A DNA stretch of 59,087 nt, filler included, from Jimgerdemannia flammicorona (Eukaryota): assembly GCA_003990765.1 (NCBI GenBank). It is 3 parts of 3 records of this genome, joined end to end, with 100 filler letters (N's around TTAATTAATTAA, not from the genome) between each part and the next. Parts side by side here need not be neighbours in the genome. Positions count along the whole stretch, not along the records: positions 39,459 to 59,087 come from RBNJ01001893.1; 2 more parts are not named here. The stretch is one strand, 5' to 3'. Positions 11,807-59,087 of this stretch are shown here, piece by piece. The notes under the pieces were generated by a model. It made no database searches. It saw only the letters and a program-made list of their open reading frames with translations, and was not told the DNA's origin. Each line of letters begins with the position of its first letter. Within the stretch, counting starts at the first letter, position 1. Both the position numbers and the translations under genes were made by a program.

Positions 11807-12042
11807 GTTGGAATGAGCAGAGAGGCAAAGCAAGGTATCACAAAACTTGACTTGTAATAATCTTAATTTATTACAAATTATATATTTATGAAAATATTCA
11901 GTTAAAAAATCAATACCCCATTTCTGTGACAGCCCACGACCTGGGAATTTTGAACTGCATCTTTAATATAGTTTGTCAATGCATGCCTATATGGCGGTAT
12001 ACATCATTCAAAGTAAAACTCAGTTCATTTATTCGCAACATT

Positions 12043-13656: not shown

Positions 13657-13708
<52 letters not shown>

Positions 13709-19629: not shown

Positions 19630-19729
19630 NNNNNNNNNNNNNNNNNNNNNNNNNNNNNNNNNNNNNNNNNNNNTTAATTAATTAANNNNNNNNNNNNNNN
19701 NNNNNNNNNNNNNNNNNNNNNNNNNNNNN
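19630..19729. other. Artificial 100-bp spacer (N run with TTAATTAATTAA)
   Basis: All-frame stop linker embedded in Ns; the flanking segments are each 19,629 bp. Confidence 0.95.
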
Positions 19730-30085: not shown

Positions 30086-33000
30086 ATGAATCCCTCACTT
30101 TTAAGCTGAAAAACAAATCACTACCACAATAACTACTCTGGCTACAAGAGTTATCTCTGTAAGAATTCAAGACAAGATAGAAATGTATCCCCCCACATTC
30201 TATAGATATACTACTGAAGAGTCAATCCTGACCTTCATTGAAGACTTTGAACAATTCGCTGCTATGTGAGTCCTCAATGTGGATGCACAATTGGCCCTTC
30301 TACCAGTCAGCCTCAGAGGACCTGCCAGAGATAAGTTCAATATAGCCACTATTGCTGATGCTGGTGTAGCCAGACTTGTCAACATGAAGACCTTTCTCAG
30401 AACTACATACTATACTGAAGAGATCAAGTAAGCTCTCAAGGATTAACTCAATACTATCTGCCAGAGACTCAGTAAAGATCCCAACTCATTTTATATCTGA
30501 ATCTGCCATCAGATTGTCTTGGCTGGCTGTGATGACTACCTCAAGAAATAAATAGCAGATTCAACCTTTCTCAAAGGAGTCCACTCTGAAATTGTCCTAG
30601 CAATCTGGTCTACCCCAGCTATACTGATCCTTGATCAAAAAGTGGTCTTTGCATAGAGATATTAGACTGCCAGACACCCTGCCAAACACTCAATAGAGAA
30701 AATAACTAGCATCAAAATGGAGCCATCAAAGCCAACTAGTATCATACCTATCACAGTTATAAACAGACAATCATCCCCACCTACCCCCAAGGCAGCCAAA
30801 GCTGACCCAGTAGAGGAACTTGCCAAGCAGTTTACTGAGATGACTGCACACCTTAGTGATATTGTTAGAGAAGTCTAAAGCACTAACAGGAGACCAGTAT
30901 AGAGATTTGTAGCTACTATAGAAGAATACAATATTACATACTTCAGATATAGAGAAGAAGGCTACTATGTAAAGAGTTGCATGATAAAAATAAGATATAG
31001 AGCCCAACTAAGTAATACTATCAGAATCAGAGAACAAATCAATATAGTAGTCATCAAGGAGATTGGTGACACTGATGATGAAGAATACTATAAGGAGCCC
31101 AAATTCTACCCTATTACTAAAGGTACCAGAACCCAGTCTAAGCCCTATGATAAGAAGAGCAACAGCAAGCCAGTTGGAAGACTGAAGAAGACTCCAGCTA
31201 TCACTATTCAAAGTAAGACCCAATCTGAGGAGATTGATCAAGATATGGAGTTAGATGAAGCTGCTCACCAAATCATTGAAGGTACTACTCCAGTCTCAGG
31301 CAAAAGTAATAGTAAGAAGGAACAGAAGCTGTGCAAGACCAAGATCTACTAGTATAATATCTACAAGGATCTTAAGGAACAGAAGATCAATGCTACTTTT
31401 GGACAGCTAGCTGAAGTCCCTGCCTTCAGATAGCAGTTGAGAGTAGGACTTGCAACCACTATCAAGAACCAAGAATACAAGATCATAGAAGCTCACAATA
31501 CATAAGAAGATGATCAAGAAGACTCAGGCAAAGAATCTGAAGACCAGTGCAGAACATCAGCCTATACCCCATATTAGATCAAAGATTGTATCTTTAATGC
31601 CATCATTGATACTGGTGCTGGAGGATGCCTTATGAGTAAGAAGACAATTGACCACTTAGGCTGGGACATTGAAGAGTCCACCAAGATGGTCTATGTTATA
31701 GCAGATAGTATATGAGCTACCCCCCTTGGCAAAATCCAAGAAGTCCCATCAAGATAAGAGGAGCTATCATCCCAGTAGATGTGATTGTTATAAGTGCCAC
31801 CAACTATGACACCCTCATTGGCAACTAATGACTTCATAAGGCCAAGGCCATCATTGACCTCAATGTCCAGAAGATATAGATCAACTATAGAGGAAGAAAG
31901 ATACAAGTCTCTATCAATGTCCACAAAGGAGTTCTACTAGATATGGAGGAAGGAGATGAAGAGGACACAGAAGTCTTCATATACTCAGTGAACAAGAATA
32001 AGAATAAGACACCCAAGCTCACAGATGAGCAGTGGTACAACAAGATTATCAATAGCTATGCTCCTCAAGAAAGATACCCCCATGATACTAGGATGTACTA
32101 CTCTGAACACCAGAATGACTGCTGGTTCTGTATCAGTGATGTCAGGAAAATCCACCAATAGAAGCATAAACAAGAAGCTGCTGAAGCAAAAAGGAAAGCT
32201 GAAGAAGATGACTAGTTCCCAGAGCTTCAAGCTGACAGTGATGATGAGGAGAAATAAGAACCAGACATCATCCTCAAGGTCAAGAAGTTTTACCCCAAAG
32301 CTAAGATCCTAGAATATAAGACTGAAAGAGTCATAAGAATGGACCTTACCAGTATTCAAGATACTACCCTTGAACCATAGACCACCACCCTACTTGGCAC
32401 TGGAATTGAAGTCAAGTTGCCAGAAAACTATACTAGATTTATCAAGATCAGGAGCAGTCTGGCCAAAAGCAAAATCTCAGTTGAAAGAGGAGTAATTAAT
32501 CCTGATTACACTGATGAGATCTTCCTCATAGTCAGGAATTACAACCCCACTACCCCATTTGAAGTCAAGAAGTATGACAGAATTGGCCAGATGCTGATCC
32601 ATGAAATCAAGAAGCCCAAGATCACCAAAGCCATCAAACTCATCAAGACTAAGAGAGGAGAACAAGGCTTTAGATCTACTGGAAGAGAAGCCTATACTAC
32701 CACTAAGATTACTGAACTTGAGCACAAAAAAGACAAGGACCAGAACAAATATATATATACCATTGGAGAAAACTTTCCTCTAGAAGAACAGCTTCTCAAG
32801 ATCCAGCATCAGAATGAAGGAGTACTTACTATAGACTTCAGAAATATCCACAATCAAGAACTCAAGTACTATTATGAAGTTGACACTGATGATACCAAGC
32901 CCATCTACCAGAAAGCCAGACCTATACCACCTGCCTACAGAGAATGGCTGTGAGCAGAACTCAAGGAAATAGAATAAGCTGAAATCATCAAGCAAGCTAT

Positions 33001-39358: not shown

Positions 39359-39458
39359 NNNNNNNNNNNNNNNNNNNNNNNNNNNNNNNNNNNNNNNNNN
39401 NNTTAATTAATTAANNNNNNNNNNNNNNNNNNNNNNNNNNNNNNNNNNNNNNNNNNNN
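39359..39458. other. Artificial 100-bp spacer (N run with TTAATTAATTAA)
   Basis: Same linker as at 19630-19729. Confidence 0.95.
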
Positions 39459-39911
39459 ATCAGTTCTGTCCAGACTCTGATCCCGAACCATATTAAAGTC
39501 CCCACCGAGAACATCTACCCCTTCCTCCAAGAGAGTACCCTCCTCCAGCAATCCCCTAATCCAAGCAATCCGCTCACCCCTAGCCGCAGGGCAGTAGCAA
39601 GAGCCCACCTTTACCGATTCCCAACCTGGCCGATGCCAATCTCCCCAGACCAAGCTATCACCCCAGCTCCTGATTCCCCCCAAGTCTCCTCTGCCTTTCC
39701 TCACCAGAATTGCTACCTTTCCAAACCACGCAGCAACCCCTCCCCACTCCTTAGTCCACTCCGCCCGATCATCTTCATCCTCACATCGAACATCCTGCAA
39801 TAAAAAGAGATCAGCCTCCAATCCCTTGAGCCAAGTAAAAATGTTCCAACACCGCCCAGATCCCCTTAGCCCATTCACATTCAAGGAAAAAATGTTGGTT
39901 GTACTGTTCAT
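39459..39911 (-). CDS. LINE ORF2 N-terminus, APE-type endonuclease (partial)
   Basis: IFSLNVNGL, DLFLLQDVR, VAILV, CYCP and GGDFN motifs. Confidence 0.9.
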
Positions 39912-39943
39912 AGAGAATAATGATATATAACAAAGCCCATCCT

Positions 39944-41961
39944 CTAAAAGTCGGCATCCAGCCTCTCCTGCGCCAAGTCCAAGTTACGTTCAGCAGCCAG
40001 ATCCCTCTTCCCAGCTTCCCGTGCCTCCAACTCCCCCAGAAGTTCAACCATCGCCCCATCCTCACGCTCCTCAAAATTCTCGCGATACTCCAGACATGCC
40101 GCCTGCCAGAGCTGTAGACCCCGACGTTCCGCCCAACAGTAAGCTGCCCTCTCAGCAGCGACCACCCCCAGGTCTGCCTTCCTCACCTCATCCACCTCAT
40201 ATCCCTCCTCCTCCAGCAATATCGTCAGAATCTCCACCTTCAGCGCCTCCACCATTCCATCCCCATGCAGGATCCTAGCCCAATGCTCCTCAGGCATCGC
40301 CCGCAGGTCCACCTCCCCCAATGCTTCTGCCGCGAGGTCATCCATCACCTTGCGTACCCACAGCAAGTTCCCCTCCTCTTTCCCTCCCGGAGTCCCCGGC
40401 CGCCCTGCATCCAACATTGTAGTATCAGCTCCTACACTAGCAGCCTCATCCCACTCCTCCTCAGGGACATCCCCCAGCTCATCCTCTCCAACCGCCACCA
40501 CTTGACCCCCTTGAGCCACATCAGGGACCCCAAAGCGCACCTGCTGGGCCCCCTGCATCCGTGTATCCTCCGGCCTTCCTCACATCCCCACTGGGCCCCT
40601 CCTGATAAGTGGGGGGGGGGTGGCCTCCAACTCCGGCTCCCACACTTCAAAGGTACCCTCAGCAAACGGGTCCTTGACCAGCCCCTTCCCAGCACCTGCC
40701 TCCTTCACCTCCACCTCCTCTCCTCCTTTACCAGCCCAGACACTGGCCTCAGCACCCCCAGACTCCTTGGCTTCACCCGACGGCTTCTTCCCCCCACCCG
40801 ATATATCCTCCAACAGCTCCTTCTGCCTCTTGCGACCCTGGATCCACTCCCACTTCTTCTTATCCATACGGATACGCCTCCCGCCCACAACCTCCAGATG
40901 TGTCGATTCCTCGAACAGTTTCCAAGCCTTCGCCCTCCTCTCTACAGCACCACCCAACTCCTCCAGCGCCTCCAACAAGTCCTCCTCCTCCTCTTCGCTC
41001 CCCTTCACCCTCGACACCTTGCAGATGACAGCCCCCCACATCAGCACCGAGGGCCAGTCACTCGGCTTCCCTGTGGCCTCTTTCCCTGCCAACCGAATCC
41101 TGACATCGACGTCGCCCGTCCTGATAGTCGTCCCCTCCCACAGTTGAAATCCAATGTCCACCACATCGCCATACTCAACCATCACCTCCTCCACCCTCCT
41201 CCTAGTCTCCTCCTTAGTCACCATGGGCACCCCCCTCACCAGAAGCTGCACGACCCTGGGATCCCACCTCAAGCACCTAACCATGGAGACCACTACCTCC
41301 CCAACCATCACTCCTGACTTCATGGCCTTGTCCAGTAGGCCCGCCTCCTCAAAGCCCACCTCCACCCCCTCCATGCCCTTCAAGAACTTCACCGAGGCTG
41401 CACCAGCCACCTGCTTCGAGATAAGCCCCAAGACCATCCTCGCCGTCACCGCCAAGCCCCGGAAGCACAAGGTAGCCACGAACTCCGAGATCGACTTTTT
41501 GAGCAACGGGGCTACCGCCAGTCCTGTTACACCATCAGCCAGGTCCCCCTTCCGCATCGGGAGCCCCTGCCCCCCCTGGCCATCAACTGTCACATCTCTT
41601 TTTTTTTCCAGATTCGCCGTCACGCCACCATCAGCAGTCCCACCACTACCTCCAGCCATCCCTCCACTTCCCCCACCTCCACCCAGCGAAGGTCCAGCTC
41701 CCCCAGTAGTTCCATCCTTCTGCTTCTCCTTCCCTCCTGCCAGTCCACCACGAGTGCCCAATGGCCAGCCCCCACCCCTCAACGTGTCCGCAAAGCTCCT
41801 CCCCTGCTTCCCTCCAGCCCCCCCACCAGTGCCACCTCCACTACCCGAGCCGCCCTGCCCACTCGAGCTACCGAAAGACCCCCCCTCTCGACAGTCTGCC
41901 AGTCGAAGGCCCCAGGTCCACCCGACCTAGTACGTGCGTCGGCTTGCTTGCTGGTTGACAT
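39944..41961 (-). pseudogene. LINE ORF1 (Gly-rich N-terminus, RRM-like core, acidic C-terminus), frameshifted
   Basis: ATG at 41961. Frameshifting deletion near 41885 relative to the copy at 1-204, and a second shift between ORFs 40580-41782 and 39944-40558. Confidence 0.75.
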
Positions 41962-42040
41962 TGCCTTAGTATCTTTTGCCAATAAATGCTTCGAAAGTAT
42001 GTTGAAAAGTGTGTGTAATGTGAATTGTAGCGGAGAAAGA

Positions 42041-43096
42041 TGCTGTATACTGCCTATATCCCTCAAGGAGCTCAACTTCTCCACCTCCTCCCATGCATCC
42101 AGACCTCCACTTCTCCCCCCTGCACTCCTCCCTCCATCAGTTCTGTCCAGATGCTGATCCCAAACCATATTAAAGTCCCTACCGAGAACATCGACCCCTT
42201 CCTCCAAGAGAATATCCTCCTCCAGCAGCTCCCTAATCCATGCAGTCCTCTCACCCCTACCTGTGGGGCAGTAGCAAGAGCCCACCTTCACCGATTCCCA
42301 CCCTGGCTGATGCCAATCTCCCCAGACCAAGTGATCACCCTAGCTCCTGATTCCCCCCAAGTCTCCCCTACCCTTCCTCACCAGAATCACCACTTTTCCA
42401 AACCAAGCAGTAGCCCCACCCCATTCCCTAGTCCACTCTACCCGATTGTCCTCATCCTCATACCGAACATCCTGTAGTAAAAAGAGATCAGCCTCCAATC
42501 CCTTGAGCCAAGTAAAAATGTTCTTATGCTGCCCAGAGCCCCTTAACCCATTCACATTCAAAGAGAAAATGTTGGTTGTACTATTCATAGAGAATAATGA
42601 TATATTGTGATTCCATCCTCTACAAGTCCACATTCGGCTCCTCCTGCACCAAGTCCAAGTCATGTTCAGTAGCTAGTTCCCTTTCCCCAGCTTCCTGTGC
42701 CTCCAACCCTCCCAGAAGTTCTACTATTGCCCCATCTTCTTGCTCCTCAAAGTCCTCATGTTACTCTAGACAGGCCTTCTGTCAGAGCTGCAAACCATGA
42801 CACTCTGCCCAACAGTAGGCTGCCCACTTATCAGTGACCACCACCAGCTCTGCCTTCCTCACCTCATCAACCTCATATTCCTCCTCCCCTAGGAAGATTA
42901 TAAGAATCTCCACCTTCAGTGCCTCTACCACTCCATCGCCATGCAGAATCCGCGCCCAATGCTCCTCAGGCATTACCTGCAGGTCCACTTCTCCCAATGC
43001 CTCTGCTGTGAGGTTATCCATCACCTTGCTCATCCACAACAAGTTCCCCACCTCCTTCCCTCCTGGAGTCCCCGGCTGCCCTGCATCCAACATCAT
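42041..43096 (-). mobile_element. Older, CpG-depleted fragment of the same LINE (ORF1 end + endonuclease)
   Basis: Colinear with 39459-40420. It is cut at 42040 by the younger LINE 5' end and at 43097 by the C1 LTR. Confidence 0.88.
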
Positions 43097-43881
43097 TGTA
43101 ATAACTCTCACTTCTACCCCTCTCTTATTCTTTGGATAATTAGGGAAGTGGACTATTACTTAGGGACTTAGTATACAATGTATACCAAGAAGCCTTCAGT
43201 TTGAGAAAGTGCTTGCTTATAAATAGTTGTAGTGGCAGTGCCTTCTGTTTCAAAGGTCTTTCTCTTGTGCCCTATTTCAAGGGTCTTATTCCTTGCTGTG
43301 CACAGACTGAATTCGCCTTGGAATTCAGGTTCAATGGGTTTACTTAAGTCTTTAGGGATTTATATACCAGTCTCAGTTCTGGCAGAAGTTAGCTAGGCTT
43401 CTGGAGTTTAGTCAGAAACACTAGAGTCACTTAGGTGTCATTATTAAGACTCAGGGGAATATGTGTGTGTGGGGGGGACTTGATTCTTGTATCAAGAACT
43501 GAACTAAAACTGCTTTATTTCAGATGGAAACTGGGGAGTATTTATACAAGTTGGTCTGTGATTTCTGACTAAGTATGAGTGACTAATTTGGTAACTATAA
43601 TGAGGTTTGTGATCATGACCTTTGTCAGGTGGTTTTTTGCAAAAAACATCTTTGTGATCAGGACCTCAATTACTAGGCAATGATCAGCTACTGTGGCAAC
43701 TGTTGCTGCAGTGCTGATTGTTGGAGATAAGCTGGATATCATTTTTCACGTCATTTTTGCATCGTTTGTCCATTTGTCATTTGTTATTCATATGTTGTGC
43801 TCGATCATTGATGACATCATTGCCAGTCATATGATCGCTTGTCACATCTTGTCTGTTTGCTCATTCATTCATTGTATTACA
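43097..43881 (-). repeat. 3' LTR of C copy 1 (785 bp)
   Basis: TGTAATA...TATTACA termini; PPT (minus AAGGAGGGAAGGA) adjacent. Confidence 0.92.
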
Positions 43882-43892
43882 TCCTTCCCTCC

Positions 43893-44726
43893 TTAGAAAT
43901 CAATGTCCTTGTTGATTCAGAAATTGAGAACCAGAGGAGAATCCTCCTCAGGGTTGTTGTCATCTTCTTCAATAGTAGGGGAGATAGTGATTGCTGATGG
44001 CTTGCTGTCCAGGGTAGAGAAGTCAATGAGATCTGCAAATGGTTCTTACATGGGGATGGATGCTGGTGTAGGGGTTCTCCATCTGATACAGTTGGGGCCA
44101 TCCAAGTAGGGTTCTTGATCTTCATGTCTAGGAATATCCATTCGGATGGGCTGTCCTTCAAAGAGGTCAGATAGGCCTTAGAACCATTGGTCAGGGTTGT
44201 CATTCAGGAGGGGGCTCCAGTAGGGTTCACAGTCAGTAGACTTGAGGGTGATCCATGAGTTGGCTTCTTGGGCTATCTTGATCTCTAGTTCATCAACCTT
44301 GAAGAAAGAGAGGTTCTGGAAGTCCTTCAGTTGGACATAATTGAGGTTTGGGATTGTGAAGAGTGCATGGCACATGATTCGATGGACCTTCTTGGCAAGT
44401 CTTTGCTTGCTTCCATCCAGGTGGGTCCAATCAGAGACTTGATCCATGGGCAGGTCCTTTGCCCATTGGAGGAGTTGGTGGCCAATCTCGTATTCATGCC
44501 AGATCTCTAGGCAGCTGGTAGCAAGGTAGGCTCTTTCAATGACATTATGGCTGTTGAGGACATAGTGTCCTAGGTCCTGGCTGGAGAGGTTAAGGGCCTC
44601 TGAGTAGCAGTTCCTTCTTTGGATAGCAACCTGGATGTGTCCAAAGAGGCAGTCAACCTGGCTTGGGAGGGGCTGACTATGGCGGGCAGTTTGGCGGTGG
44701 GTAGCTTGGCTGTGGGTAGCGGGCAT
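43893..44726 (-). pseudogene. Accessory ORF3 of C copy 1 (~280 aa), unknown function
   Basis: ORF 44178-44726 plus its in-frame continuation (GLSDLFEG..NCIRWRTP..FADLIDFS..SPLVLNF); ends at the PPT. Confidence 0.82.
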
Positions 44727-45369
44727 TCTTGTCTTGTCTTTTCTTTGTGAGGAGAGGGAGATGAAGGTTACGGGGTATTCTTGCTTTGGGTATTTATACT
44801 TATTTCCCCCTCTGGTGTGATCTTCCTTTGGTCATGCTTTCTAGTGAAATGTGTGACCTATTGCTGTAAGTGGGACATGTACTGGTCATATGAGAAAATC
44901 CTGATTTTAACGATATCGTCACTCATAGTTGTGGTTACACAGGGTTAACAGGTCTTGGTCCACTTTTTTTTTGTCTGGTTGGCACATTTGTGAGGACTGG
45001 CCATCCTTGTCTAGGGCAAGGGCTCCTATTGTCATGGCTGGGGGTTTGAACCTCTCGGAAATAGACATTTCTTGTAATCCGAGGCAATTTCTAGTAATAA
45101 TATCTGTCACATGAATGGACTTAGACTGGTTTTGACATTGTCAGCTTTCCTAAGTTCCACATGAAGCATCCATAATCATCCAGCGGAGATGATACAGATG
45201 GTGTGAAATGGAGTTGTTCAAATGTATTTTGCTGTACTGTGCTAGACTGTTCTTTACTCGAGCATCTTCTTGTTGATTATCCATAGTATTCCTTTTTCTG
45301 CAATGTTCAGTATTATATGTTTCCAGATAAAATATATGATATCCTTCTGCTCACTATGTGCTCTAATTC

Positions 45370-48300
45370 TCAGAGCTGCAGGTCCTTCCTTTGTGGGGGA
45401 GTAAGTGTTTCCATATAGTCCTGGAGGGCTTCGCGTGCATTCTTCAGAGCTTCTTCTTTTTCCCAAGTGGCGTCATGGGTGGGGTAACCCTTCCACTTGA
45501 TCAGGAAAAACTGCTTGACTGTTTTGGGATATTTGCAGACCTTGTGGTCAAGTACTTCCTCAATTTCGAATTCCTCATGATTATTGATCCTAATTGGGGG
45601 CGGTGGTAGAACTGTATGCTTGGGGAATGGGTTCTCATAGTAGTCCACCAATTGGCTGATGTGGAATACTGGGTGTACTCGGATATTGTGAGGGAGTTGC
45701 AACTTGTAGTTGACTTTGCTGATCTTTTCCACAATCTTATATGGTCCAATTCTTCTAGCATGGAATTTTTTAGCTAATTGTTGTACTAGGGTGTCTGGAT
45801 AGAGGTGGTCTGTTCTAAGCATGACCATATCACCAATGTTATAGGAGACTTCTCTTCACTTCAAGTTTGCATAATTGGTTTGGTAGTCTTGTGCTTCTAT
45901 GATGGCATCTCTTGTTATTCACATAAGGTCAGAAATGGTCTCGGCCAGATCTTGGGCTGCTGGGACTGTTGATTTCGCAGTAGTGCTTGGAGTTCTTGAG
46001 TGTTGATCATGGTTCAGGAAGAATGGAGTCTTCTTTTTGGAGGTTTACTGACTGTTATTGTAGGCAAACTCGGCATGGACTATATACTTGTCCCAATCAT
46101 TTTGCTTGTAACAGCAGAAGATGCTAAGCATCTGTTTGAGAGTCCTGTTGGTTTGCTTGGTTTGACTGTCAGTCTGAGGATGGTAGGCAGTAGAGAACTT
46201 CAGCTTGGTTCCATTGAGAGAGAAAAATGCCTTCCAGAAGTTGCTTGTGACCTTGGCATCTCGGTCAGATACAATAGTGCTAGGCATGCCATGTAGCCTG
46301 AATACTTGGTTGAGGAAAATCTCAGCAATCTCTGGTGCTATAGCGGTGGTCTTAGTGGGTGCAAAATGAGCTTGTTTACTTAGGCAATCTACGAATACCA
46401 CAATGGCATCCCATTCTGCCTTGGTCTTGGGGAGTTGGACAATGAAGTCTATTGCAATCTGATCCCAGTTGTGGCTCAGGATAGGCAAGGGTTACAGGAG
46501 TCCTGCTGGTAGTTTGTTACCACTTTTGAACCTTTGGCATATCTCACATGAGGCCACAAAGTCTTTGATATCCTTGGTCATCTTTGGCCAGTAGAACTCT
46601 CTTGAGAGGAGGCTGTAAGTCTTTTCAAAACCAAAGTGTCCTGCTGCAGGAGTATCATGGAGTTCCTGCATGATCTTGAGTTGCAGAGAATCATTGTTGG
46701 ATACAACCACTCTGTTATGGTCCCGGTAGATAAGTCCATCATGGTAAGTGAATCTCTTGGCCATTTGCCTCATGGGTTCTGGGACCTTGGCCTCTGGGTC
46801 TTGGCAGAATTGAAGGATGTTTGTCAGGGGGCTGTCCTGCTGATAGCCATCCTTGATCATCTGGATAAGGTCTCCAATTACCTCAATCATGAAGACAAGT
46901 TCATCTTCCATGTACCTAGAGAAACCATCAGCCACACAGTTGGTTTTGCCTGGGATATACTTGATTTCCATATCAAAGTTGGCAATGATTTCCATCCAGC
47001 AGGCTTGTCTGTGGGTCAGCATGGGCTTTGTGTGAATATACCACAGGGCATGGTGATCAGTATAGGCTACAAATGGTTGTCCTAAGAGGAAATAGCACCA
47101 TTCCTGGAGTGCAGTAACAATGGCCAGGAGTTCCTTCTCGTGGGTGGTATACTGGGTCTCAGCTGGCTTGAGCTTTTGGGAAAGATAGGCCACTGGGCAG
47201 TCTTCTTGGCTGAGCACTGCCCCAATAGCAATGTCAGAGGCATCTGTGGTCAGGGTGAATAACCTGGTAGAGTCAGGTGCAATTAGCACTGAGGCCTCAG
47301 TAAGGAGTCTCTTGAGATGGTCCATAGCCAGAGTGCATTCGGAGGTCCATTCAGTCTTAATGTTTACTCCTTTGTGTGCCAGATTGGTTAATGGGGCTGC
47401 AATGGCAGAGTATCCTTGGATAAACCTTCGGTAGTAACCGGCAATACTCAGAAAGCACTAGAGTAGCTTGAGGGTAGTGGGGATGGGAATATCCTTAAGG
47501 GCTGATACCTTTCGGGGGTCTACATTGATACCTTCAGCAGATATGATATGTCCTAGGTACTCAATCTGGTCCTGAAAGAACTTGCATTTGCTCATCTTGG
47601 CATAGAGCTGGTGTTCTCACAGAAGGGTCAGTACTTGTCTGAGGTGGGTGTAGTGTAGCTCTACTGTCTCACTGTAGATTAGTATATCATCAATATACAC
47701 AAGGACACAGATGTTGAGGAGTGGTCCAAAGATGTCATTCATCAGATACTGGAATGTTGCTGGTATATTGATCAAACCAAAAGGCATGACTCAGAACTGG
47801 TAGTGTCCAAACAATGTTCGAAAAGCTGTCTTCTCAATATCCTTCTCATCAATGAGAATCTGGTGATAGCCATTTTGCAAGTCTAGTAGGGAAAAGGTCT
47901 GGGCCTTGAAGATTTGGTGTAGCAACTCATCAATCCTAGGCAAGGCATACCAGTTCTTGATGGTGATCTTGTTGAGAGCTCTGTAGTCAATACACATTCG
48001 CAGAGAGCCATCCTTCTTCTTGACAAATAGAATGGGGGCTCCAAATGGAGAGCGGCTGGGTTCAATATATCCTTGGGCCAGTAATTTGGTCAATTGATCC
48101 TTGAGGGTCTAGAGCTCAGATTGGGCCAGTTGATAGATACTCTTATATGGGGGTTCAGATGCTGGGATAAGATCAATTCTATGTTGGATTTGGTGCTTGG
48201 GTGGAAGTTCTTGGGGGTTTTGGAATACATCTTGGAATTCTTCAAATAGTTCTTGAGCTTCTGTTGGAATTGGGCTACTTGTAGCTTCAGTGACTTCTTG

Positions 48301-51300
48301 TACTGTATAGATGAAGTTGGTGTTTCCCTTTTTTCGAGAGAGTCTCTTCATTTGAATGGCAGAGAGGATTTCGATTCTCTGGTGGTTGGTACCTTCCTGG
48401 GGTGTCAGAGTGATCTTTCTGCCTTCATGGGTCAGGTTAACCTCATTGGTTCTCCAGTTGATGTCTGGGTTGTGCTGGGTCAACCAGGCTTTTCCTAGGA
48501 TAATGTCCTGTCCTGGGAGGTCTACAATGCTGAAGTCCAACTTCTCTTGATATTTGTCAATCTTGAGCAAGAGATCTTCGCAGATCTTGGTCAATGGTGC
48601 AGTCTTTCCATCACCAAAGGTAACACTTCTTTTCTCAGTGGTGGGTCTGCTTCGGGCTCCAATACTCTTGGCAGTCTTGGTGCTGATATAGTTTCCAGTA
48701 GCACTACTATCCAGCAAGACATTGACATTCTGTCTATGGACTTGGCCTATGAACTTGATGCAGCTGTCCTCTTTCTTGATGGTATTGAGCTCTTCATCTT
48801 CATTGTTGTCCCAATTGTCAGTCTTCTCGAAGTCAGTTTCTCCCCATCCTTCACAAGGAGGGTTGTCTTGTTTGGGTTCCTCAGTCTGTTGGGCTTGGCG
48901 TATCTCAGATTGAATTTTGAAGACTTTGGAGAGGCATGCATGGCATTCACCAACATGTTCCATGTAGTACATTCGAATGGAATGAGGGTATCATCCACAT
49001 GGTGCATAACTATCTGCAATTCTCTTATACCAGTTTTCATCATCTTCCTTCATGGTAGTGATCTTCTGACTGGGAGGTTTGTTGGTTAATCCAAACCCTT
49101 TCTTGCCACGATCTGTCTAGGAGAGCTCGGGGACTTCTTCAATGATTGCTTGGACAATCCTTTGGCCTATTTTGACTTCAAATGATGTGTCTCCAAAATT
49201 TCGCAAGATGACACAGATTTTGCCAGTAAATCCTTGATCAACTACTCCTCCTCCTAGCCCAATGTTGAACTCTTTGGCTAGGCTGCTTCGCTCAGCAAGG
49301 CAGATGTATGTTCCTTTGGGAGCTTGTATTGCAATTCCTGTTCACACTGTAGCATTGGTACTTGGTGGGATGGTGAGGTCTTGGCTGCTGTAGAGGTCAT
49401 AACTAGCATCAATTGGGTGGGCCTTAGTAGGGATGGTAGCCTTATACCATATCTTCTGTACTTTGATGATATTCTCAGGGTTCTTCTTTCCTGGATCTTC
49501 TCCAATAACGGTAATGTTCTGGTTACTGGGTTCACCTGATCTGTTCTTCTTCTCAGGGCATCTGAATGAGATGTGTCCTGCCTTCTTACAGATGAAGCAT
49601 AATCCCTTTTCGCGAAGCTGCTTCTTTTCATCCTCAGTGGGAGGTCTGGGTCCTCTGGGATTTTGCTGGTTCCTTTGATCATTCCTTTGATCATATATTT
49701 GATCATTCCTTTGGTCATTACTTCTGGTAGGATTTCTCCTATCTTAGTTATCCTTCTTGTATTTTTAGTTTCATGGAGCTTATGTAGCAAGGATTTCATG
49801 GGCTCTTCTTTGTACTTGAGCAAAACACCGACAATCTTGGGGAAGACCTTGTTCCTTGATCTTCTGGGTGAGCCAGTCTGGTAGGGCTGCAAAAAGATGG
49901 TTGGCTCTGGTACCATTGATGGCCAAATTGTTCTCCTGATAGGTGAGTCCAACAGTTTTGAGATAGGCATCCATTCTAGTTGCAAAGGTCTCTAGATCTT
50001 CTTCGCCATTCTTGTGGAACTTCATCTGGGACAGTTTGTTCCAAATTTCTTGTATGTAGGCCGCATTTCAGAATTTGGTCAGTAGAAAGGCCTTGAGTCC
50101 TGGACCTGCTTCATAGTCATCCCAACCTGGTCTATTGTTGGCAGGTACTTGTCCATTGACTTGAGAGCAGTTTTCCCAGGTTACTGAGTATTGTTCCAAG
50201 GTTTGCCAGAATTCGGCTACTGTTCCAGTGAAAAATGTGACTACTGTTTTCACTTGTACTGCTGATATAGCAAACAGCTGTTGAAGGGTGCTGTTCTGGT
50301 TGTTGGTGAGCATTCCTATAGGCACTCAGTTGTCATTCCATTGGTTTACTCAGTAGCCTGTGTCAAATGCATTGATGAAGTTTTCAATGTCACTATTTTT
50401 TCCACTGAATGGTGGGATTCACAGAGTCTTGGTTGGTTTGTTCTATTCAGCAATCTGTCCTACTATCCCTGCTAGTGCTGCTAGCTGGATAGTCAGTGCT
50501 GCAATGTTGATATCTACCATTGTGTTGACTATTGGTGGTGGGTCTGTTGGGGTAGATTCTCCTGAAGATTGTTCTTTTTGGTGGGGTTGTGGTGCTGTAT
50601 GACTTGGGGTTACTTGATTCCCAGATATCAAGTCAAAGAGTCCTGTAAGAGAGGGTAAACCAAACCTCTATATAGGTGGCTGAGTTGGTTCTGGGGTCTG
50701 ATCTTCTTGACCTGTGGTTTCCTGATAACCTCCTAGGCCTACTGTTCCTTGTTGGCTATTGTCAGACTAGTAACCTATAGAGTCTTTGTCTGACTCCCTT
50801 CCCTGATGAGATAGTGCATCCTTGTACTAACTAGGTCCTTCAGAGAGGATATCAGTCTCTGGCTAGGTAGATGGGCCTGCTTCTTGTTCAGCAGTAGGGG
50901 ATGGTTGGCCTGCTTGCTCGTTCTCGTACCTGGTTATGGCAGAGGCATAGTATACAACTAACCTGTAGTAGAGGGAGGTCTTGGTAGGGGTATGATGATA
51001 TCTGTCAGAGACAATCCACTCAGCAGCTGCTTCTCTTGCAGTAGGGGGTGTGATATAGTATAAAAAATCCTAGGTAGCTGCAGCAGTAGATTCAGGGGTC
51101 CTAGTGGTTCCAATATGTCCTTGGAGGAGTTTTTAGAACCTACAGCAGCTGACAATATTCCTAAGTCCTGGGTGGTATGTCCTAAAGACCTGGTATAGAT
51201 CCTTGTAAGCCTGGTCAATTACAAGCTGGCGGGTCCCTGTATCTGTGGTTTCCTGGTACCACCTGGTCCTAATGGCAAGGGCTTCTCTGGCTCTGGTTTG

Positions 51301-51390
51301 AGGATCCACAGTTGGTTCTGGGGGTTACTCCTGTCCAAGGTTGGTCTTGTTCCAACTTCAGGAGTGTGTTCTTTGGTGCCTTCTCGGCTG
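45370..51390 (-). pseudogene. gag-NC-dUTPase-CHCC module-protease-RT-RNase H-integrase-chromodomain of C copy 1
   Basis: CFICKKAGHISFRC knuckle; LLDSSATGNY protease; [15 protein letters not shown] and YIDD RT; TDASDIAIGAVL RNase H; HH-CC, SDRD and STAYHPQTD integrase; GPY; EEFEIEEVLDH..FLIKWKGY..TWE chromodomain. The gag start is approximate. Confidence 0.92.
49085..49475 (-). pseudogene. dut: dUTPase domain of C copy 1, in frame after the zinc knuckle
   Basis: ASYDLYSS..TGIAIQAPKGTY...ERSSLAK...GGGVVDQGFTG...DRGKKGFG. Confidence 0.9.
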
Positions 51391-51410
51391 GTAATCTGCT
51401 GCTACCAAGT

Positions 51411-51792
51411 TGTAATAACTTTCACTTCTACCCCTCTCTTATCCTTTGGATAATTAGGGAAGTGGACTATTACTTAGGAACTTAGTATACAATGTGTACC
51501 AAGAATCCTTCAGTTTGAGGAAGTACTTGCTTATAAGTAGTTATAGCAGCAGTGTCTTCTATTTCAAAGGTCTTTCTCTTGTGCCCTATTTCAAGAGTCT
51601 TGTTCCTTGTTGTGCACAGACTGAATTCACCTTGGAATTCAGGTTTAATGGGTTTACTTAAGTCTTTGGGGATTTATATACTGGTCTCAGTTCTGGCAGA
51701 AGTTAGCTAGGCTTCTGGAGTTTAGTCAGAAACACTAGAGTCACTTAGGTATCATTACTAAGACTCAGGGGAATATGTGTGTGTGGGGGGGA
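51411..51792 (-). repeat. Partial 5' LTR of C copy 1, interrupted by C copy 2
   Basis: Matches 43097-43478, then restarts as a new LTR at 51793. Confidence 0.88.
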
Positions 51793-52590
51793 TATAATAA
51801 CTCTCACTTCTACCCCTCTCTTATCCTTTGGATAATTAGGGAAGTAGACTATTACTTAGAGACTTAGTACACAATGTGTACCAAGAAGCCTTCAGTTTGA
51901 GGAAGCATTCGCTTATAAGTAGTTGTAGCAGCAGTGTCTTATCTTTCAAAGGTCTTTCTCTTGTGCCCTATTTTGAAGGTCTTATTCCTTGCTGTACACA
52001 GTCTGAATTCGCCTTGGAATTCAGGTTCAATGGGGTTACTTAAGTCTTTGGGGATTTATATACCAGTCTTAGTTCTGGCAGTAGTTAGCTAGGCTTCTGA
52101 AGTTTAGTCAGAAACACTAGAGTTACTTAGGTGTCATTACTAAGACTCAGGGGAATGTGTGTGTGTGGGGGAGACTTGATTCTTGTATCAAGGACTGAAC
52201 TAAAACTGCTTTATTTCGGATGGAAACTGGGGGGTATTTATACAAGTTGGTCCACGATTTCTGACTAAGTATGAGTGACTAATTTGGTAACTATAATGAG
52301 GTTTGTGATCGCAACCTTTGTCAGGTGGTTTTTTTGCAAAAAACTCTTTGTGATCAGGACCTCAATTACTAGGCAATGATCAGCAGCTATGGAAACTGTT
52401 GCTGTGGTGCCGATTGTCAGGGATAAGCTAAATATCGTTTTTCGCATTGTTCGTTTGCATTGTTCATCACTCGTTATTCATATGTCGCGCTCAATCATAT
52501 GATGACATCATCGCTGGGTCACGTGATCATTCTTGATCACTCGTCGCATCCAATCTGTTCACTTGTTTGTTCTATTACATCCTTCCCCCC

Positions 52591-53422
52591 TTAGAAATCA
52601 ATGTCCTCATTAATTGAGAAATTGAGAACCAGGGGAGAGAAAGGTGGGGAATCCTGCTCAGGGTTGTTGGCATCTTCTTCAGTAGTAGGGGGGGTGGTGG
52701 TTGCTGATGGCTCGCCATCCAGAATGGAGAAGTCAATGAGGTCTGCAAATGGTTCTTGCATTGGGATAGGTGCTGGTGTAGGGGTTCTCCATCTGATGCA
52801 GTTGGGGCCATCCAAGTAGGGTTCTTGGTCCTCATGCCTGGGAATATCCATTCAAATGGGTGGGCCTTCAAAGAGGTCAGAGAGGCCTTGGAGCCATTGG
52901 TCTGGGTTGTCATTCAGGAAGGGGCTCCAGTGGGGTTCACAGTCAGTAGACTTGAGGGTGATCCAGGAGTTGGCTTCTTGGGCTATCTTGATCTCTAGTT
53001 TATCAACCTCGAAGAAGGAGAGGTTCTGGAAGTCCTTCAGTTGGACATAGTTGAGGTTGGGGATTGCAAAGGGTACATGGCGCATGATTTGATGGACCTT
53101 CTTGGCAAGTCTTTACTCATTCCTGTCCAGGTGGGTCCAATCAGAGACTTGGTCCATGAGCAGGTCCTTTGCCCATTGGAGGAGTTGGTGGCCAAATCTC
53201 GTATTCATACCAGATCTCTAGGCGGCTGGTGGCAAGGTAGGCTCTTTCAATGACTTCACAGTGGTTGAGGACATAATGTCCTAGGTCCTGGCTAGAGAGG
53301 TCAAGGGCTTCTGAGCGGTGGTTCCTTCCTTGGATAGCAACCTGGATGTGTCCAAAGAGGCGGTCAACCTAGCTTGGAAGGGGCCAGCTACGGTGAGCAG
53401 TTTGGTGGTGGGTGGCAGGCAT
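52591..53422 (-). pseudogene. Accessory ORF3 of C copy 2
   Basis: ATG at 53422 (MPATHH...). ORFs 52852-53085 and 52591-52851 continue in one frame to ...NEDIDF* at the PPT. Confidence 0.82.
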
Positions 53423-54066
53423 TCTTGACTTGTCTTTTCTTTGTGAGGAGAGGGGGATGAGAGTTGTGGGGTATTCTTGCCTAGGGTATTTATACTTATT
53501 CCCCTCTCTGGTGTGACCTTCCTTTGGTCACGCTTTCTGGCAAAATGTGTGACCTGTTGCTGTAAGCAGGGCATGTGCTGGTCATATGAGAAAATTCTGA
53601 TTTCAAAGATCTCGTCACTCATAGTTGTGGTTACACAGGGTTAACAGATCTTGGTCCACTTTTTTTTTGTCTGGTTGGTGCATTTGCGAGGACTGGCCAT
53701 CCTTGTCTAGGGTGAGGGCTCCCATTGTCATAGCTGGGGGTTCGAACCTCTTGGAAATAGACTTTTCTTGTAATCCAAGACAATTCCTAGTAACAATATC
53801 TGTCACATGGATGGACTTAGACTGGTTTCGACATTATCAGCTTTCCTAAGTTCCATATGAAGTATCCACCATCATCCAGCAGAGATGATACAGATGGCAT
53901 AAAATGGAGTTGTTTAAATGTGTTTTGCTATACTATGCTAGATTGTTCTTTTGCTCAGGTATCTTCTTGTTGGTTATCCATAGTGTTCCTTTTTCTGCAA
54001 TATTCAGTATTATATGTTGTCAGATAAAATATGTGGTATCCTTCTGCTCACTATGTGCTCTAATAC

Positions 54067-57000
54067 TTAGAGCTGTAGTTCCTCCCTTTGCTGGGGGGTG
54101 AGTGTTTCCATATAGTCCTGGAGGGCTTTGTATGCATTCTTCAGGGCTTCTTCTTTTTTCCAGATGGCATCATAGGTGGGGTATCCCTTCCACTTGATCA
54201 GGAAAAAGCGCTTGACTTTTTTGGGATATTTGCAGACCTTGTGGTCAAGTACTTCCTCAATTTCGAATTCCTCATGATCATTGATCCTAATTGAGGGTAG
54301 TGGTGGAACTGTATGCTCGGGGAATGGGTTCTCATGGTAGTCCACCATTTGGCTGATATGGAATACTGGATGTACTTGGATATTGTGAGAAAGTTGCAAC
54401 TTGTGGTTGACTTCGCTGATTTTTTCCATGATCTTATATTGTCCAATTCTTCTAGCATGGAGTTTCTTGGCTAGTTGTTGTGTCAGGGTGTCTGGGTGGA
54501 GGTGGTCTGTTCTAAGCATGACCATGTCACCAATATTGTAGGAGGCTTCTCTTTGCTTCAAGTTTGCATACTTGGTCTGGTAGTCTTGTGCTTCTATGAG
54601 AGCATCTCTTGTCATTCGGGTAAGGTCAGAAATGGTTTCGGCCAGATCTTGGGCTGCTGGGACTGCTGATTTCACGGTTGTACTCAGGGTCCTTAGGAGT
54701 TGACCATGGTTCAGGAAGAATGGAGTCTTCTTTGTGGAGGTTTACTGACTGTTGTTGTAGGCAAACTCAGTATGGGCTAGGTACTTGTCCCAATCATTTA
54801 GCTTGTAACAGCAGAAGATGCTAAGCATCTGTTTGAGAGTCCTGTTGGTTTGCTCAGTTTGACAATCAGTCTGAGGGTAGTAGGCAGTAGAGAACTTCAG
54901 CTTGGTTCCATGGAGGGAGTAAAATGCCTTCCAGAAGTTGCTTGTGAACTTGGCATCTCGGTCAGATACAATAGTGCTAGGCATGCCATATAGCCTGAAT
55001 ACTTGATTGAGGAAAATCTTAGCAATCTCTGGTACTATAGCAGTGGTCTTAGTGGATGCAAAGTGGGCTTGTTTACTTAGGTGGTCCACAAATACCACTA
55101 TGGCATCTCATCCTGTCTTGGTCTTGAGGAGTTGGACAATGAAGTCCATTGCAATCTGATCCCAGTTGTGACTTGGGATAGGCAAGGGTTGCAGGAGTCC
55201 TGCTAGTAGCTTGTTACCACTTTTGAACCTTTGGTACCTCTCGCATGAGGCCACAAAGTCTTTGATATCCTTGGTCATCTTTGGCCAGTAGAACTCTCTT
55301 GAGAGGAGGTTGTAGGTCTTTTCGAAACCAAAGTGTCCTACTGCAGGGGTATCATGGAGTTTCTGCATGATCTTGAGTCGCAGAGTATCATTGTTGGATA
55401 CAACCACTCTGTCATGGTCCCTGTAGATAAGTCCATCATGGTAAGTGAATCTCATGGCCATTTGCCTCATGGGTTCTGGGACCTTGGCCTCTGGGTCTTG
55501 GCAGAATTGAAGGATGTTTGTCAGGGGGCTGTCCTGCTGATAGCCATCCTTGATCATCTGGATAAGGTCTCCAATTACCTCAATCATGAAGACAAGTTCA
55601 TCTTCCATGTACCTAGAGAAATTATCAGCCACATGGTTGGTTTTGCCTGGGATATACTTGATTTCCATATCAAAGTTAGCAATGATTTCCATCCAGCAGG
55701 CTTGTCTGTGAGTCAACATAGGCTGTGTGTGAATATACCGCAATGCATGGTGATCAGTGTAGGCTACAAACGGTTGTCCTAGGAGGAAATAGCGCCATTC
55801 CTGGAGTACAGTAACAATAGCCAAGAGTTCCTTCTCATGAGTAGTATACCGGGTCTCAGCTGGCTTGAGCTTTTGGGAAAGGTAGGCCACTGGGTGGTCT
55901 TCTTGACTGAGCACTGCCCCAAGGGCAATGTCAGAGGCATCTGTGGTCAGGGTGAATGGCCTGGTAGGGTCAGGTGCAATTAGTACTGGGGCCTCAGTAA
56001 GGAGTCTCTTGAGATGGTCCATAGCCAGGGTGCATTCAGGGGTCTATTCAGCTTTGATGTTTACTCCTTTGTAGGCCAGGCTGGTCAGTGGGGCTGCAAT
56101 AGCAGAGTATTCTTGGATAAACCTTTGGTAATAACCGGCAATACCCAGAAAGTGCTGGAGTAGCTTGAGGGGAGTAGGGATAGGGATATCCTTAAGGGCT
56201 GATACTTTTCGGGGGTCCACATTGATTCTTTCAGCAGAGATGATATGTCCTAGGTACTTGATCTGGTCTTGATAGAACTTGCACTTGCTCATCTTGGCAT
56301 AGAGTTGGTGTTCTTGCAGAAGAGTCAGTACTTGTCTGAGGTGGGTGTAGTATAGCTCTACTGTTTCGCTGTAGATTAGTATATCATCAATATACACAAG
56401 GACACAGATGTTGAGGAGTGGTCCAAAGATGTCATTCATCAGATACTGGAATGTTGCTGGTGCATAGGTCAATCCAAAAGGCATGACTCAGAACTGGTAG
56501 TATCCAAACTGTGTTCGGAAAGCTGTCTTCTCAATGTCCTTCTCATCAATGAGAATCTGGTGGTAGCCATTTAGCAAGTCTAGTAGGGAAAAGGTCTTGG
56601 CCTTGAAGATTTGGTATAGCAACTCATCAATCCTAGATAAGGCATACCAGTTCTTGATGGTGATCTTATTGAGGGCTCTGTAGTCAATACATATTTGCAG
56701 AGAGCCATCCTTCTTCTTGACAAATAGAATAGGGGCTCCAAATGGAGAGCAGCTGGGTTCAATGTATCCTTGGGCCAGTAGTTTGGTCAATTTATCCTTG
56801 AGGGTCTTGAGCTCAGATTGGGCCAGTTGGTAGATGCTCTTATATGGGGGTTCAGATCCTGGAATAAGATCAATTCCATGTTGGATTTGGCGCTTGGGTG
56901 GAAGTCCTTGGGGGTCTTGGAATATATCTTGGAATTCTTCGAACAGTTCTTGAGCTTCTGTTGAGATTGTACTACTTGTAGCTTCAGTGACTTCTTGTAC

Positions 57001-59074
57001 TGTACAGATGAAGTAGGTGTTTCCCTTTTTTCGAGAGAGTCTCTTCATTTGAATGGCAGAGATAATTTCGATTCCTTGGTAGTTGGTACCTTCCTGGGGT
57101 GTCAGGGTGATCTTTCTGCCTTCATGAATCAGGTTAACCTCATTGGTTCTCCAGTTGATGTCTGGGTTGTGCTGGGTCAACCAGGCTTTTCCTAAGATAA
57201 TATCTTATCCTGGGAGGTCTACAATGCTGAAGTCCAACTTCTCTTGATATTTGCCAATTTTGAGTAAAAGATCTTTGCAAATCTTGGTCAATGGTGCAGT
57301 CTTTCCATCACTGAAGATAACACTTCTTTTCTCAGTGGTGGGTCTACTTCGGGCTCCAATCCTCTTGGCAGTCTTGGTGCTGATGTAGTTTCCAGTAGCA
57401 CTACTATCAAGCAAGACATTGACATTCTGTCTGTGGACTTGACCTGTGAACTTGATGCAACTGTCCTCCTTCTTGATGGTATTGAGCTCTTCATCTTCAT
57501 TGTTGTTGTCCCAATTGCTGTCAGTCTCCTCGAAGTCAGTTTCTCCCCATCCTTCACAAGGAGGGTTGTCTTGTTTGGGATCCTCAGTCTGTTGAGCTTG
57601 ATGTTTCTCAGATTGAATTTTGAAAACTTTAGAGAGGCATGCATGGCATTCACCAACATGTTCCATGTAGTACATTCGAATGGAATCAGGGCATCATCCA
57701 CATGGTGCATAACCATCTGCAATTCTCTTATACTAGTTTTCATCATCTTCCTTCATAGTAGTGACCTTTTGACTGGGAGGTTTGTTGGTAGATCCAAACC
57801 CTTTCTTGCCATGGTCTGTCTGGGAGAGCTCGGGGACTTCTTCAATAGTGAGATCTTGATGGATTTCTTCAATAATTGCTTTAGCAATTTTTTGGCCTGT
57901 TTTGACTTCAAATGATGTGACTCCAAAAATTTCGCAAAATGACACATATTTCACTAGTAAATCCTTGGTCAACTACTCCTCCTCCTAGCCCAATGTTGAA
58001 CTCTTTGGCTAGGCTACTTCATTCAGCAAGGTGAATGTATGTACCTTTGGGAGCTTGCATTGCAATTCCTGTTTATACTGTAGCATTGATACTTGGTGGA
58101 ATAGTGAGATCTTGGCTACTGTAGAGGTCATATCTAGCATTGGTTGGGTGGGCCTTAGTGGGGATGGTAGCCTTGTACCATATCTTCTGTACTTTGATGA
58201 CATTCTTGGGGTTCTTCTTCCCTGGGCCTTCTCCAATGACAGTAATGTTCTGATTACTGGGGTTGCCTGTTCTGTTTCTCTTCTCAGGGCATCTGACTGA
58301 GATGTGTCCTGCTTTCTTGCAGATGAAGCACAATCCCTTTTTGTGGAGCTGTTTCTTTTCATCCTCAGTGAGAGGTCTGGGTCCTCTGGGGTTTCGTTGG
58401 TTCCTTTAATCATTCCTTTGATCATATCTTTGGTCATTTCTTTGGTCATTTCTCCTGGTAGGATTCCTCCTATCTTGGTTATCCTTCTTGTGTTCTTGAT
58501 TTCATGGAGCTTGTGCAGCAAGGATTTTGCGGGCTCTTCTTTGTACTTGGGCAAAGCACCATGAGTAGTGGGGGCATCCTTGGGGAAGACCTTGTTCCTT
58601 GATCTTCTGGGTGAGCCAGTCTTGTAGGGCTGCAAAAAGGTGGTTGGCTCTGGTACCATTGATGGCCAAATTGTTTTCCTGATAGGTAAGTCCAACAGTT
58701 TTGAGATAGGTATCCATTCTGATGGCAAAGGTCTCTAGATCCTCCTCGCCATTCTTATGGAACTTCATTTGGGATAGTTTGTTCCGAGTTTTTTGTATGT
58801 AGGCTTCATTCTGGAATTTGGTCAGTAGCAAGGCCTTGAGTTCTGGGCCTGCTTCATGGTCATTCCAACCTGGTCTATTGTTGGTAGAAGCTTGTCCAAT
58901 GATTTGAGGGCGGGCTTCCCAAGTTACTGGGTGTTGTTCCAAGGTTCGCCAGAATTCGGCTACTGTTCCAGTGAAGAATGTGGCTACTGTTTCTACTTGT
59001 GCTGCTAATGTGGCAAACAGCTGTTGGAGGGTGCTATGGTTGTTGGTGAGCATTCCTATAGGCACTCAGTTGTC
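54067..59074 (-). pseudogene. gag(part)-dUTPase-CHCC module-protease-RT-RNase H-integrase-chromodomain of C copy 2
   Basis: The ORF-track fragments 54067-59065 carry all the Ty3 pol motifs, separated by transition-derived stops. Confidence 0.92.
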
Positions 59075-59087
59075 TTTTTTTTTTTTT

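Follow-up and report, generated by a model that had tools for sequence, protein, structure and literature searches.

A small Cys/His module that recurs beside the dUTPase of several retrotransposons in Jimgerdemannia flammicorona raises the question of what it is and why it accompanies the enzyme. The stretch of DNA analysed (the window) comprises 59,087 nt of assembly GCA_003990765.1, with positions 39,459-59,087 corresponding to record RBNJ01001893.1. Three of its chromovirus families carry the module: C (copies C1 and C2), B (copies B1 and B2) and D. The best-supported conclusion is that the module is restricted to a narrow group of dUTPase-carrying Ty3/gypsy chromoviruses, in which it lies between dUTPase and protease (PR) in either order. 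Sequence comparison, modelling and analogy together tilt the balance towards a real, independently folding domain of ~45 residues, which would bind a single zinc and serve these elements as a non-catalytic tether. The module is new in that it matches no catalogued family, and represents a modest new piece of retroelement anatomy. An initial annotation of the locus had taken it for a mobile zinc-binding domain functionally coupled to the dUTPase or the protease, an interpretation that is partly supported.

A recurrent module in three chromovirus families

While the whole module spans ~45 residues, its core comprises 40 codons. The minus strand of 48920-49060, in C1, translates as KEDDENWYKRIADSYAPCG*YPHSIRMYYMEHVGECHAC (asterisks denote stops), just as initially read. 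A relaxed regular expression applied to the six frames of the window finds exactly five copies, and tblastn with the C1 module returns the same five (E 1e-32, 5e-27, 1e-13, 6e-8 and 4e-8), with no match in family A of the window:

48922-49041, minus strand: C1 module core, DENWYKRIADSYAPCG*YPHSIRMYYMEHVGECHACLSKV; three of the four invariant putative ligands, codon 17 TGA, codons 18 and 26 TAC
57625-57744, minus strand: C2 module, DEN*YKRIADGYAPCG*CPDSIRMYYMEHVGECHAC (regular expression, tblastn)
32024-32143, plus strand: B1 module, DEQWYNKIINSYAPQERYPHDTRMYYSEHQNDCWFC, between PR and dUTPase
24789-24908, minus strand: B2 module, DEQ*YNKIINGYALQERYPHSTRMYCSEYLNDYWFC (regular expression, tblastn)
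6313-6432, minus strand: D module, EEQFYKKIEDGYVPSG*CPHSIRMYSFQIINDYFSY (regular expression, tblastn)

The presence of the module in three families is confirmed. Its relaxed Cys/His pattern, [CY]P[HYD]-x12-[CY]-x2-[CY], matches the six frames of the window at these five sites only, and in 100 mononucleotide shuffles it occurs 0.17 times on average and once at most. Three of the four invariant putative ligands are kept in C1, C2 and B1 and two in B2 and D, so that no window copy has the full set. Two details of the initial reading need correction. The His-to-Cys spacing, given as 11 residues, is 12 (C-P-H-x12-C-x2-C), and a further Cys was overlooked at codon 26, which is TAC in C1, C2 and B1 but reads TGC (Cys) in B2 as well as in soil-metagenome contigs and intact relatives.

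Host elements and order of domains

C1 is a Ty3/gypsy chromovirus, with Pfam domains RVP_2, RVT_1, RT_RNaseH, Integrase_H2C2, rve, SH3_Tf2-1 and Chromo in one frame. The order of its parts is Gag(CCHC)-dUTPase-module-PR, followed by reverse transcriptase (RT), RNaseH, integrase(H2C2), SH3 and chromodomain. The features that frame the module copies, together with an element of family A for comparison, are:

45373-50520, minus strand: C1 polyprotein frame, 1716 codons, 20 stops, no frameshift
49558-49599, minus strand: C1 Gag CCHC knuckle
49096-49488, minus strand: C1 dUTPase (Pfam PF00692, E 2.3e-22; tblastn), upstream of the module
48421-48798, minus strand: C1 aspartic protease (Pfam RVP_2, E 3.5e-7), with LLDSSA active-site motif at 48700-48717, downstream of the module
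57799-58219, minus strand: C2 dUTPase (tblastn map)
57118-57495, minus strand: C2 PR (tblastn map)
31575-31749, plus strand: N-terminal part of B1 protease, with IIDTGAGG at 31602-31619, upstream of the module in a different frame
32261-32668, plus strand: B1 dUTPase (Pfam PF00692, E 4.5e-20; tblastn), downstream of the module
25320-25337, minus strand: B2 PR motif
24264-24671, minus strand: B2 dUTPase (tblastn map)
6478-6702, minus strand: D dUTPase, upstream of the module
5938-6210, minus strand: D PR, downstream of the module
1004-1792, minus strand: family A comparison element lacking the module, dUTPase 1397-1792, then PR 1004-1348

Families C and D share the order dUTPase-module-protease, and family B has protease-module-dUTPase-RT. 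The B1 protease is recognized through matches to Asp_protease_2 and gag-asp_proteas, both under the curated cut-off (E about 5e-4). In family A (311-1792) the order is Gag(CCHC)-dUTPase-protease-RT without a module, and only seven residues separate the Pfam envelopes of dUTPase (56-182) and RVP_2 (190-307) in the translation of 900-1930. Pfam and tblastn agree with the placement first proposed, in which the module is C-terminal to the dUTPase in C and D, N-terminal to it in B and missing in A.

C1 and C2 form a tandem repeat (43099-50334 and 51795-59074; unit ~8.7 kb, 89.5% identity), and a 380-bp piece is present three times (43096-43478, 51410-51792 and 51795-52171). The arrangement looks like two elements with a common long terminal repeat (LTR), or the product of unequal recombination.

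Intact relatives

A profile built from the five copies in the window brought up intact relatives of the C family (P0001) and the B family (P0002), along with P0003, a D-family protein terminating at the TGA. Among 1,835,955,588 representatives, a module profile matched 13 proteins at E<=1e-3, eight of them at E<=1e-10. A word-based search with 13 intact modules again gave 13 proteins, three of them new, and taken together 17 proteins contain the Cys/His part of the module. The complete C-P-H-x12-C-x2-C is present in 14 of the 17. The three deviants are P0007 (H>Y), P0008 (C>Y) and P0012 (H>Y and C>Y), each change being reachable by one transition. Because unmutated relatives keep the Cys/His set, the concern raised at the outset, that undecayed copies might lack the ligands, is averted. 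The Cys at codon 26 (C, S, F or A) and the His at codon 29 (H, M or Q) vary among relatives and are therefore not essential.

Co-occurrence with a dUTPase, proposed as a check, was found in 14 of the 17 database proteins (Pfam): the dUTPase precedes the module in 11 and follows it in P0002, P0008 and P0013. That the module may lie on either side is seen directly by BLASTP between P0001 and P0002, in which the module and dUTPase segments align in swapped order. As for the protease, Pfam places it after the module in P0007 and P0011 and before it in P0013, and a D-S-G motif marks it after the module in P0006 and P0017. No dUTPase is present in P0009 (157 aa), P0010 (82 aa), P0012 (63 aa) or the metagenome locus L001 (a 204-codon open reading frame), but sequences of this length cannot establish that the module occurs without the enzyme. 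L001 and P0009 share a W-C-x-C-x2-C motif after the module. L001 (2-616, 818-1120) also contains the motif G-W-x-x-D-x-x-G-x-W twice (Pfam SCNM1_acidic, E 3.5e-7) and, in another frame, a C-x2-C-x6-C stretch resembling the start of a fungal Zn2Cys6 domain.

The metagenome scan gave six loci, of which L001 and L002 are the only real relatives; L003-L006 are chance matches 13-27 residues long. L002 is a D-family copy less decayed than that of the window. Other collections added nothing: none of five pattern matches in viral contigs was confirmed, none of five candidates obtained with the whole C1 polyprotein (region 470-560) among proteins of 943-3003 residues scored, and in the ESM Atlas the P0002 module reached 0.81 at best, under the useful range, and the L001 frame had no usable match.

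Conservation and predicted fold

The consensus core reads [WF]-Y-x-[KR]-[IL]-x2-G-Y-x-P-x-G-R-C-P-H-G-I-x-M-Y-x6-C-x2-C. Between P0001 and P0002 (BLASTP) the module is 55% identical over 56 residues (E 4e-19), compared with 39% for the dUTPase. Across 28 pairs from eight proteins, identity averages 39.6% in the module and 37.7% in the dUTPase, and the two are correlated (r = 0.50). In conservation, the module is thus on a par with the enzyme. When the 11 C-type proteins are aligned, it forms a gap-free block with five invariant and four nearly invariant columns, flanked by Lys/Glu-rich linkers of variable length and rich in indels. Support in the dUTPase tree is limited to the clade of P0002, P0008, B1 and B2 (99/99) and to the pair P0001 and C1.

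AlphaFold2, given an alignment of 13 sequences, predicts the module with a mean pLDDT (predicted local distance difference test) of 85.7, four of five models reaching at least 82. The predicted elements are a helix (12-20), a hairpin (27-28/34-35), a second helix (38-43) and a long last helix (45-60). In this model C-P-H-G forms the hairpin turn and C-x2-C the start of the last helix, so that knuckle and first helix turn would have the arrangement of many structural zinc sites. A 320-residue model of P0006, a protein with neither the variable Cys nor the variable His, shows the same secondary structure in the module, and its pLDDT falls into blocks: 77-93 in the dUTPase, 39-53 in the linker, 82-87 in the module and 34-59 in the next linker.

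Structural searches with the model gave no convincing relative. Foldseek listed 36 matches in the PDB, none at E<=0.001 (best E 3.9); VIA-align over 48,161 chains gave a best Z of 3.4 and none at Z>=5; and the best Foldseek match among the predicted viral structures of BFVD had E 1.5. The lack of a match for a 60-residue model is weak evidence of a new fold. A predicted complex of three dUTPase copies, the module and zinc scored 0.00, in a prediction made without alignments and with an uncertain partner fold.

Mutational decay within the window

Judged from their sequences, the five copies are dead relics, with stops and Cys>Tyr changes caused by C>T/G>A decay that is strongest at CpG. Over 7219 aligned sites, transitions make up 584 of the 688 differences between C1 and C2, and there is strong depletion of CpG. 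Within the module, C>T or G>A changes account for seven of the eight sites at which C1 or C2 departs from intact P0001. Reversing such changes, as the initial annotation had done, is sound because soil-metagenome contigs read TGC for TAC at codons 18 and 26 of C1 and GGT for AGT at codon 11. Likewise, the Arg it had placed at the stop after Gly is encoded by AGA in the B copies and is R in intact P0001 and P0002.

The recurrent stop at codon 17 is TGA in C1 (48991-48993), C2 (57694-57696), D (6382-6384) and L002 (457-459), and from sequence it is explained by CpG decay of CGA. Codon 28 of the D family is similar: CAA in the window and TGA in L002 are each one CpG transition from CGA. No change at 48993 is listed for the otherwise less decayed metagenome contigs, which may share the TGA. 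Use of the in-frame TGA for selenocysteine or programmed readthrough was considered and dropped, given R, K, V, P or H in other proteins, AGA in the B copies and CGA>TGA being a CpG transition. The sequencing runs with related copies (shares of at most 0.15 each) are mostly soil metagenomes, root metagenomes occurring too; no RNA run is among those listed. Taken with the type of element and the literature on fungal chromoviruses, these runs suggest a fungal host.

Relation to known families

Pfam has no family that covers the module, be it in C1, in P0001 or P0002 at E<=10, in 15 further proteins or in L001. When 13 isolated modules were compared with Pfam at E<=10, eight families were matched, none in more than two members; the best match, to VMAP-M14 (E 9.6e-5), occurred in one member and lies under the 27-bit cut-off in the full protein. 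PDB sequence searches with two module profiles gave chance matches only (E 0.66 and E 7.5), and full-text searches on retroelement dUTPases and retrotransposon zinc motifs turned up no account of the module. As first stated, the module is neither the Gag CCHC knuckle nor the integrase HHCC: C1 has each of these elsewhere in its frame, and hhalign aligns the module with the elements' own integrase zinc region over one column, with a probability of 0.2%. Similarly, Pfam zf-CCHC matches the Gag knuckle of P0001 (residues 242-258) and never the module.

The Gag of the C and D families has a conserved W-L-x2-K-I-x-E-Q-G-x4-C-P-H-x3-C that by eye is like a shortened module (C2 upstream of 58330, P0001 148-175, P0017 150-168, D ~7400-7500). 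An origin of the module from this segment is not supported, the module hidden Markov model giving ~0 bits on the Gag stretch.

Possible functions of the module

The reading to which we lean is that of a single-zinc tether. One zinc ion would be held by the Cys and His of the C-P-H hairpin turn and the two Cys of C-x2-C, in a putative knuckle-plus-helix site; the binding of a single zinc and the identity of its ligands are suggested by the conserved residues and by the model. Its neighbours, dUTPase and protease in either order, would be connected to it through flexible charged linkers. By analogy with the nucleocapsid (NC) zinc knuckles of the betaretroviral NC-dUTPase fusion, the module may tether the dUTPase, possibly along with the protease, to nucleic acid or to the protein core of the reverse-transcription particle. 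This function is proposed from the two other cases known in which a retroelement dUTPase is paired with a zinc knuckle.

Several points weigh against this reading. To judge from its sequences, the module differs from NC knuckles in being no more than mildly basic, and zinc knuckles do not usually begin with a Cys-x-His ligand pair. In family A of the window the dUTPase directly precedes PR and so can do without the module. Three fragments (P0009, P0010 and L001) have no dUTPase in the 55-108 residues upstream, although this is weak evidence. No solved structural relative found by Foldseek, VIA-align or BFVD lends the module a function, and the module tree has no supported branch and does not group the three B-type modules. 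Furthermore, since the module lies between dUTPase and PR in every resolved case, coupling to PR is equally compatible with its position.

A more specific proposal, possible though doubtful, is that the module is an autonomous cassette, a zinc-finger fold that arose in a chromovirus lineage and brings the dUTPase to the reverse-transcription complex. Its occurrence on either side of the dUTPase, and possibly without one in L001, P0009 and P0010, would suit such a cassette, which would represent the third independent pairing of a zinc knuckle with a dUTPase, after betaretroviruses and the rotifer element Juno.

Regulation or stabilization of the dUTPase is unlikely. As an accessory lid, the module would dock on the dUTPase trimer, for example via the mobile C-terminal arm (motif V). 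It lies 15-45 residues from motif V in the 11 C-type proteins, the identities of module and dUTPase co-vary (r = 0.50), and fusion to NC changes the conformation of the dUTPase C-terminus in Mason-Pfizer monkey virus (M-PMV), as described in the excerpted report (PMC1802613). The module is also found upstream of the dUTPase, in three B-type proteins. However, the dUTPase of family A manages without a module, the linkers vary widely in length and are predicted to be disordered, and three fragments carry the module without a nearby dUTPase.

Neither do we favour, and hold to be just as improbable, a folded spacer of the protease region that sets the timing or position of cleavage or aids protease dimerization, like retroviral transframe or flanking regions. 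The position of the module, before PR in C1, C2, D, P0006, P0007, P0011 and P0017 and after it in B1, B2 and P0013, would allow this, but a spacer needs neither invariant Cys/His residues nor conservation at the level of an enzyme, and family A and most Ty3/gypsy elements are processed without a module.

Recruitment of the host ubiquitin or SUMO machinery by a degenerate RING or SP-RING-like half finger is very improbable. The second zinc site of RING fingers is C-x-H ... C-x2-C, a similar ligand pattern and spacing, and there are two sub-threshold matches: P0010 to zf_RING_Vps8_fungal (E 0.0023, 18.7 bits against a cut-off of 27.4) and one of 13 isolated modules to zf-C3HC4_3 (E 0.059). Yet these concern only one of 16 and one of 13 sequences, both under curated cut-offs, the first RING zinc site is absent, and no RING chain is among the listed structural matches (none by Foldseek at E<=0.001; best Z 3.4 over 48,161 chains).

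Hardly credible, and already disfavoured, is a conserved linker without function or a chance Cys/His pattern amplified by the copying of related elements: the family is tiny (13 representatives in 1.84 billion proteins) and the five window copies are all dead, but the same four residues persist in elements that are only 25-58% identical, the flanks, unlike the module, are full of indels and cannot be aligned, 13 sequences sufficed for a confident fold prediction, and the Cys/His pattern is absent from shuffled sequence apart from the rare matches given above.

Other features of the window

The region 39411-42339 (minus strand) has 60% G+C, a strong GC skew and long open frames, one of them with an Exo_endo_phos match of AP-endonuclease type (E 8.5e-7), and a similar endonuclease-like piece occurs again at 41779-42339. 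It is probably a non-LTR retrotransposon spared the C>T decay of the LTR elements. An exon-like open frame at 15888-16256 (minus strand), within a block of higher GC (12000-19000), contains a WD40 repeat (Pfam E 1.4e-8) and is probably a host gene among the transposons. Runs of N at ~19630-19680 and ~39411-39455, taken as assembly gaps, read as X in translations.

Significance

Retroelement dUTPases are known from fungi, rotifers and retroviruses; what retains them at the site of cDNA synthesis has, to our knowledge, been worked out for the betaretroviral NC-dUTPase fusion alone. As a separate and strongly conserved Cys/His domain that accompanies the enzyme in fungal-type chromoviruses, the module would offer another tractable case in which to study this retention. 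The scope is narrow, with 13 representatives among 1.84 billion proteins. Nevertheless, the module would add an uncatalogued small domain to annotation libraries, in which the stretch is now blank or treated as a linker. It also illustrates how Cys>Tyr changes and stops in hypermutated copies can hide a domain that intact metagenomic relatives recover.

Comparison with known systems

Two zinc motifs of the same elements are the obvious references. The Gag CCHC knuckle (PF00098) has the pattern C-x2-C-x4-H-x4-C, compared with C-x-H-x12-C-x2-C in the module. The integrase HHCC/H2C2 domain (PF17921, PF09337) resembles the module in being a small Cys/His module of retroelements that also ends in C-x2-C on a helix, but its pattern is H-x(n)-H-x(n)-C-x2-C, and its match in C1 (residues 1436-1493) is far from the module.

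Outside the retroelements, a local likeness of ten residues links the module profile (CPHGIRMYC) to Aquifex MutL (CPHGTPIYY). The match is not significant (PDB profile E 7.5; Foldseek E 3.9, template modelling score 0.20), and only C-P-H-G is common to both, the MutL motifs DQHAx2Ex4E and ACR being missing from the module alignment. The likeness is a lead on chemistry only, without homology. In MutL, residues of the C-P-H-G-R-P motif coordinate zinc, according to the excerpted account (PMC10366529), and a Cys-x-His pair can thus chelate zinc.

Fungal chromoviruses carry the dUTPase at the N-terminus of Pol, between PR and RT, or at the C-terminus of Pol (PMC2864245). PosPlaTy3 of Postia placenta, elements of Phanerochaete chrysosporium and Tmt1 of Tuber are chromodomain Ty3/gypsy elements with a dUTPase (PMC2864245), and families A-D of the window fit among them. 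In the excerpt of that survey considered here, the only zinc motifs named are CCHC and HHCC, with no module at the side of the dUTPase (PMC2864245).

In the rotifer element Juno, as described in part of its report, the dUTPase lies between PR and RT and is followed by an extra Zn knuckle (PMC5408684). Juno is an LTR retrotransposon with an additional zinc knuckle directly beside the dUTPase (PMC5408684), an arrangement that by its description recalls the families of the window, although its host belongs to another kingdom and its dUTPase occupies the PR-dUTPase-RT position only.

The zinc module of M-PMV is the CCHC nucleocapsid and is always N-terminal, whereas the module of the window is an extra one, has another pattern and occurs on either side of the dUTPase; no relation in sequence or fold was found between it and the betaretroviral NC zinc module. 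The likeness is one of architecture. In the excerpted account, the NC-dUTPase fusion (p30) of M-PMV binds oligonucleotides through NC, a zinc-binding and nucleic-acid-binding module that a flexible linker attaches to a trimeric dUTPase, the fusion being encoded immediately before the protease (PMC1802613). In the C-type elements the order Gag(CCHC)-dUTPase-module-PR recalls this betaretroviral NC-dUTPase-PR arrangement.

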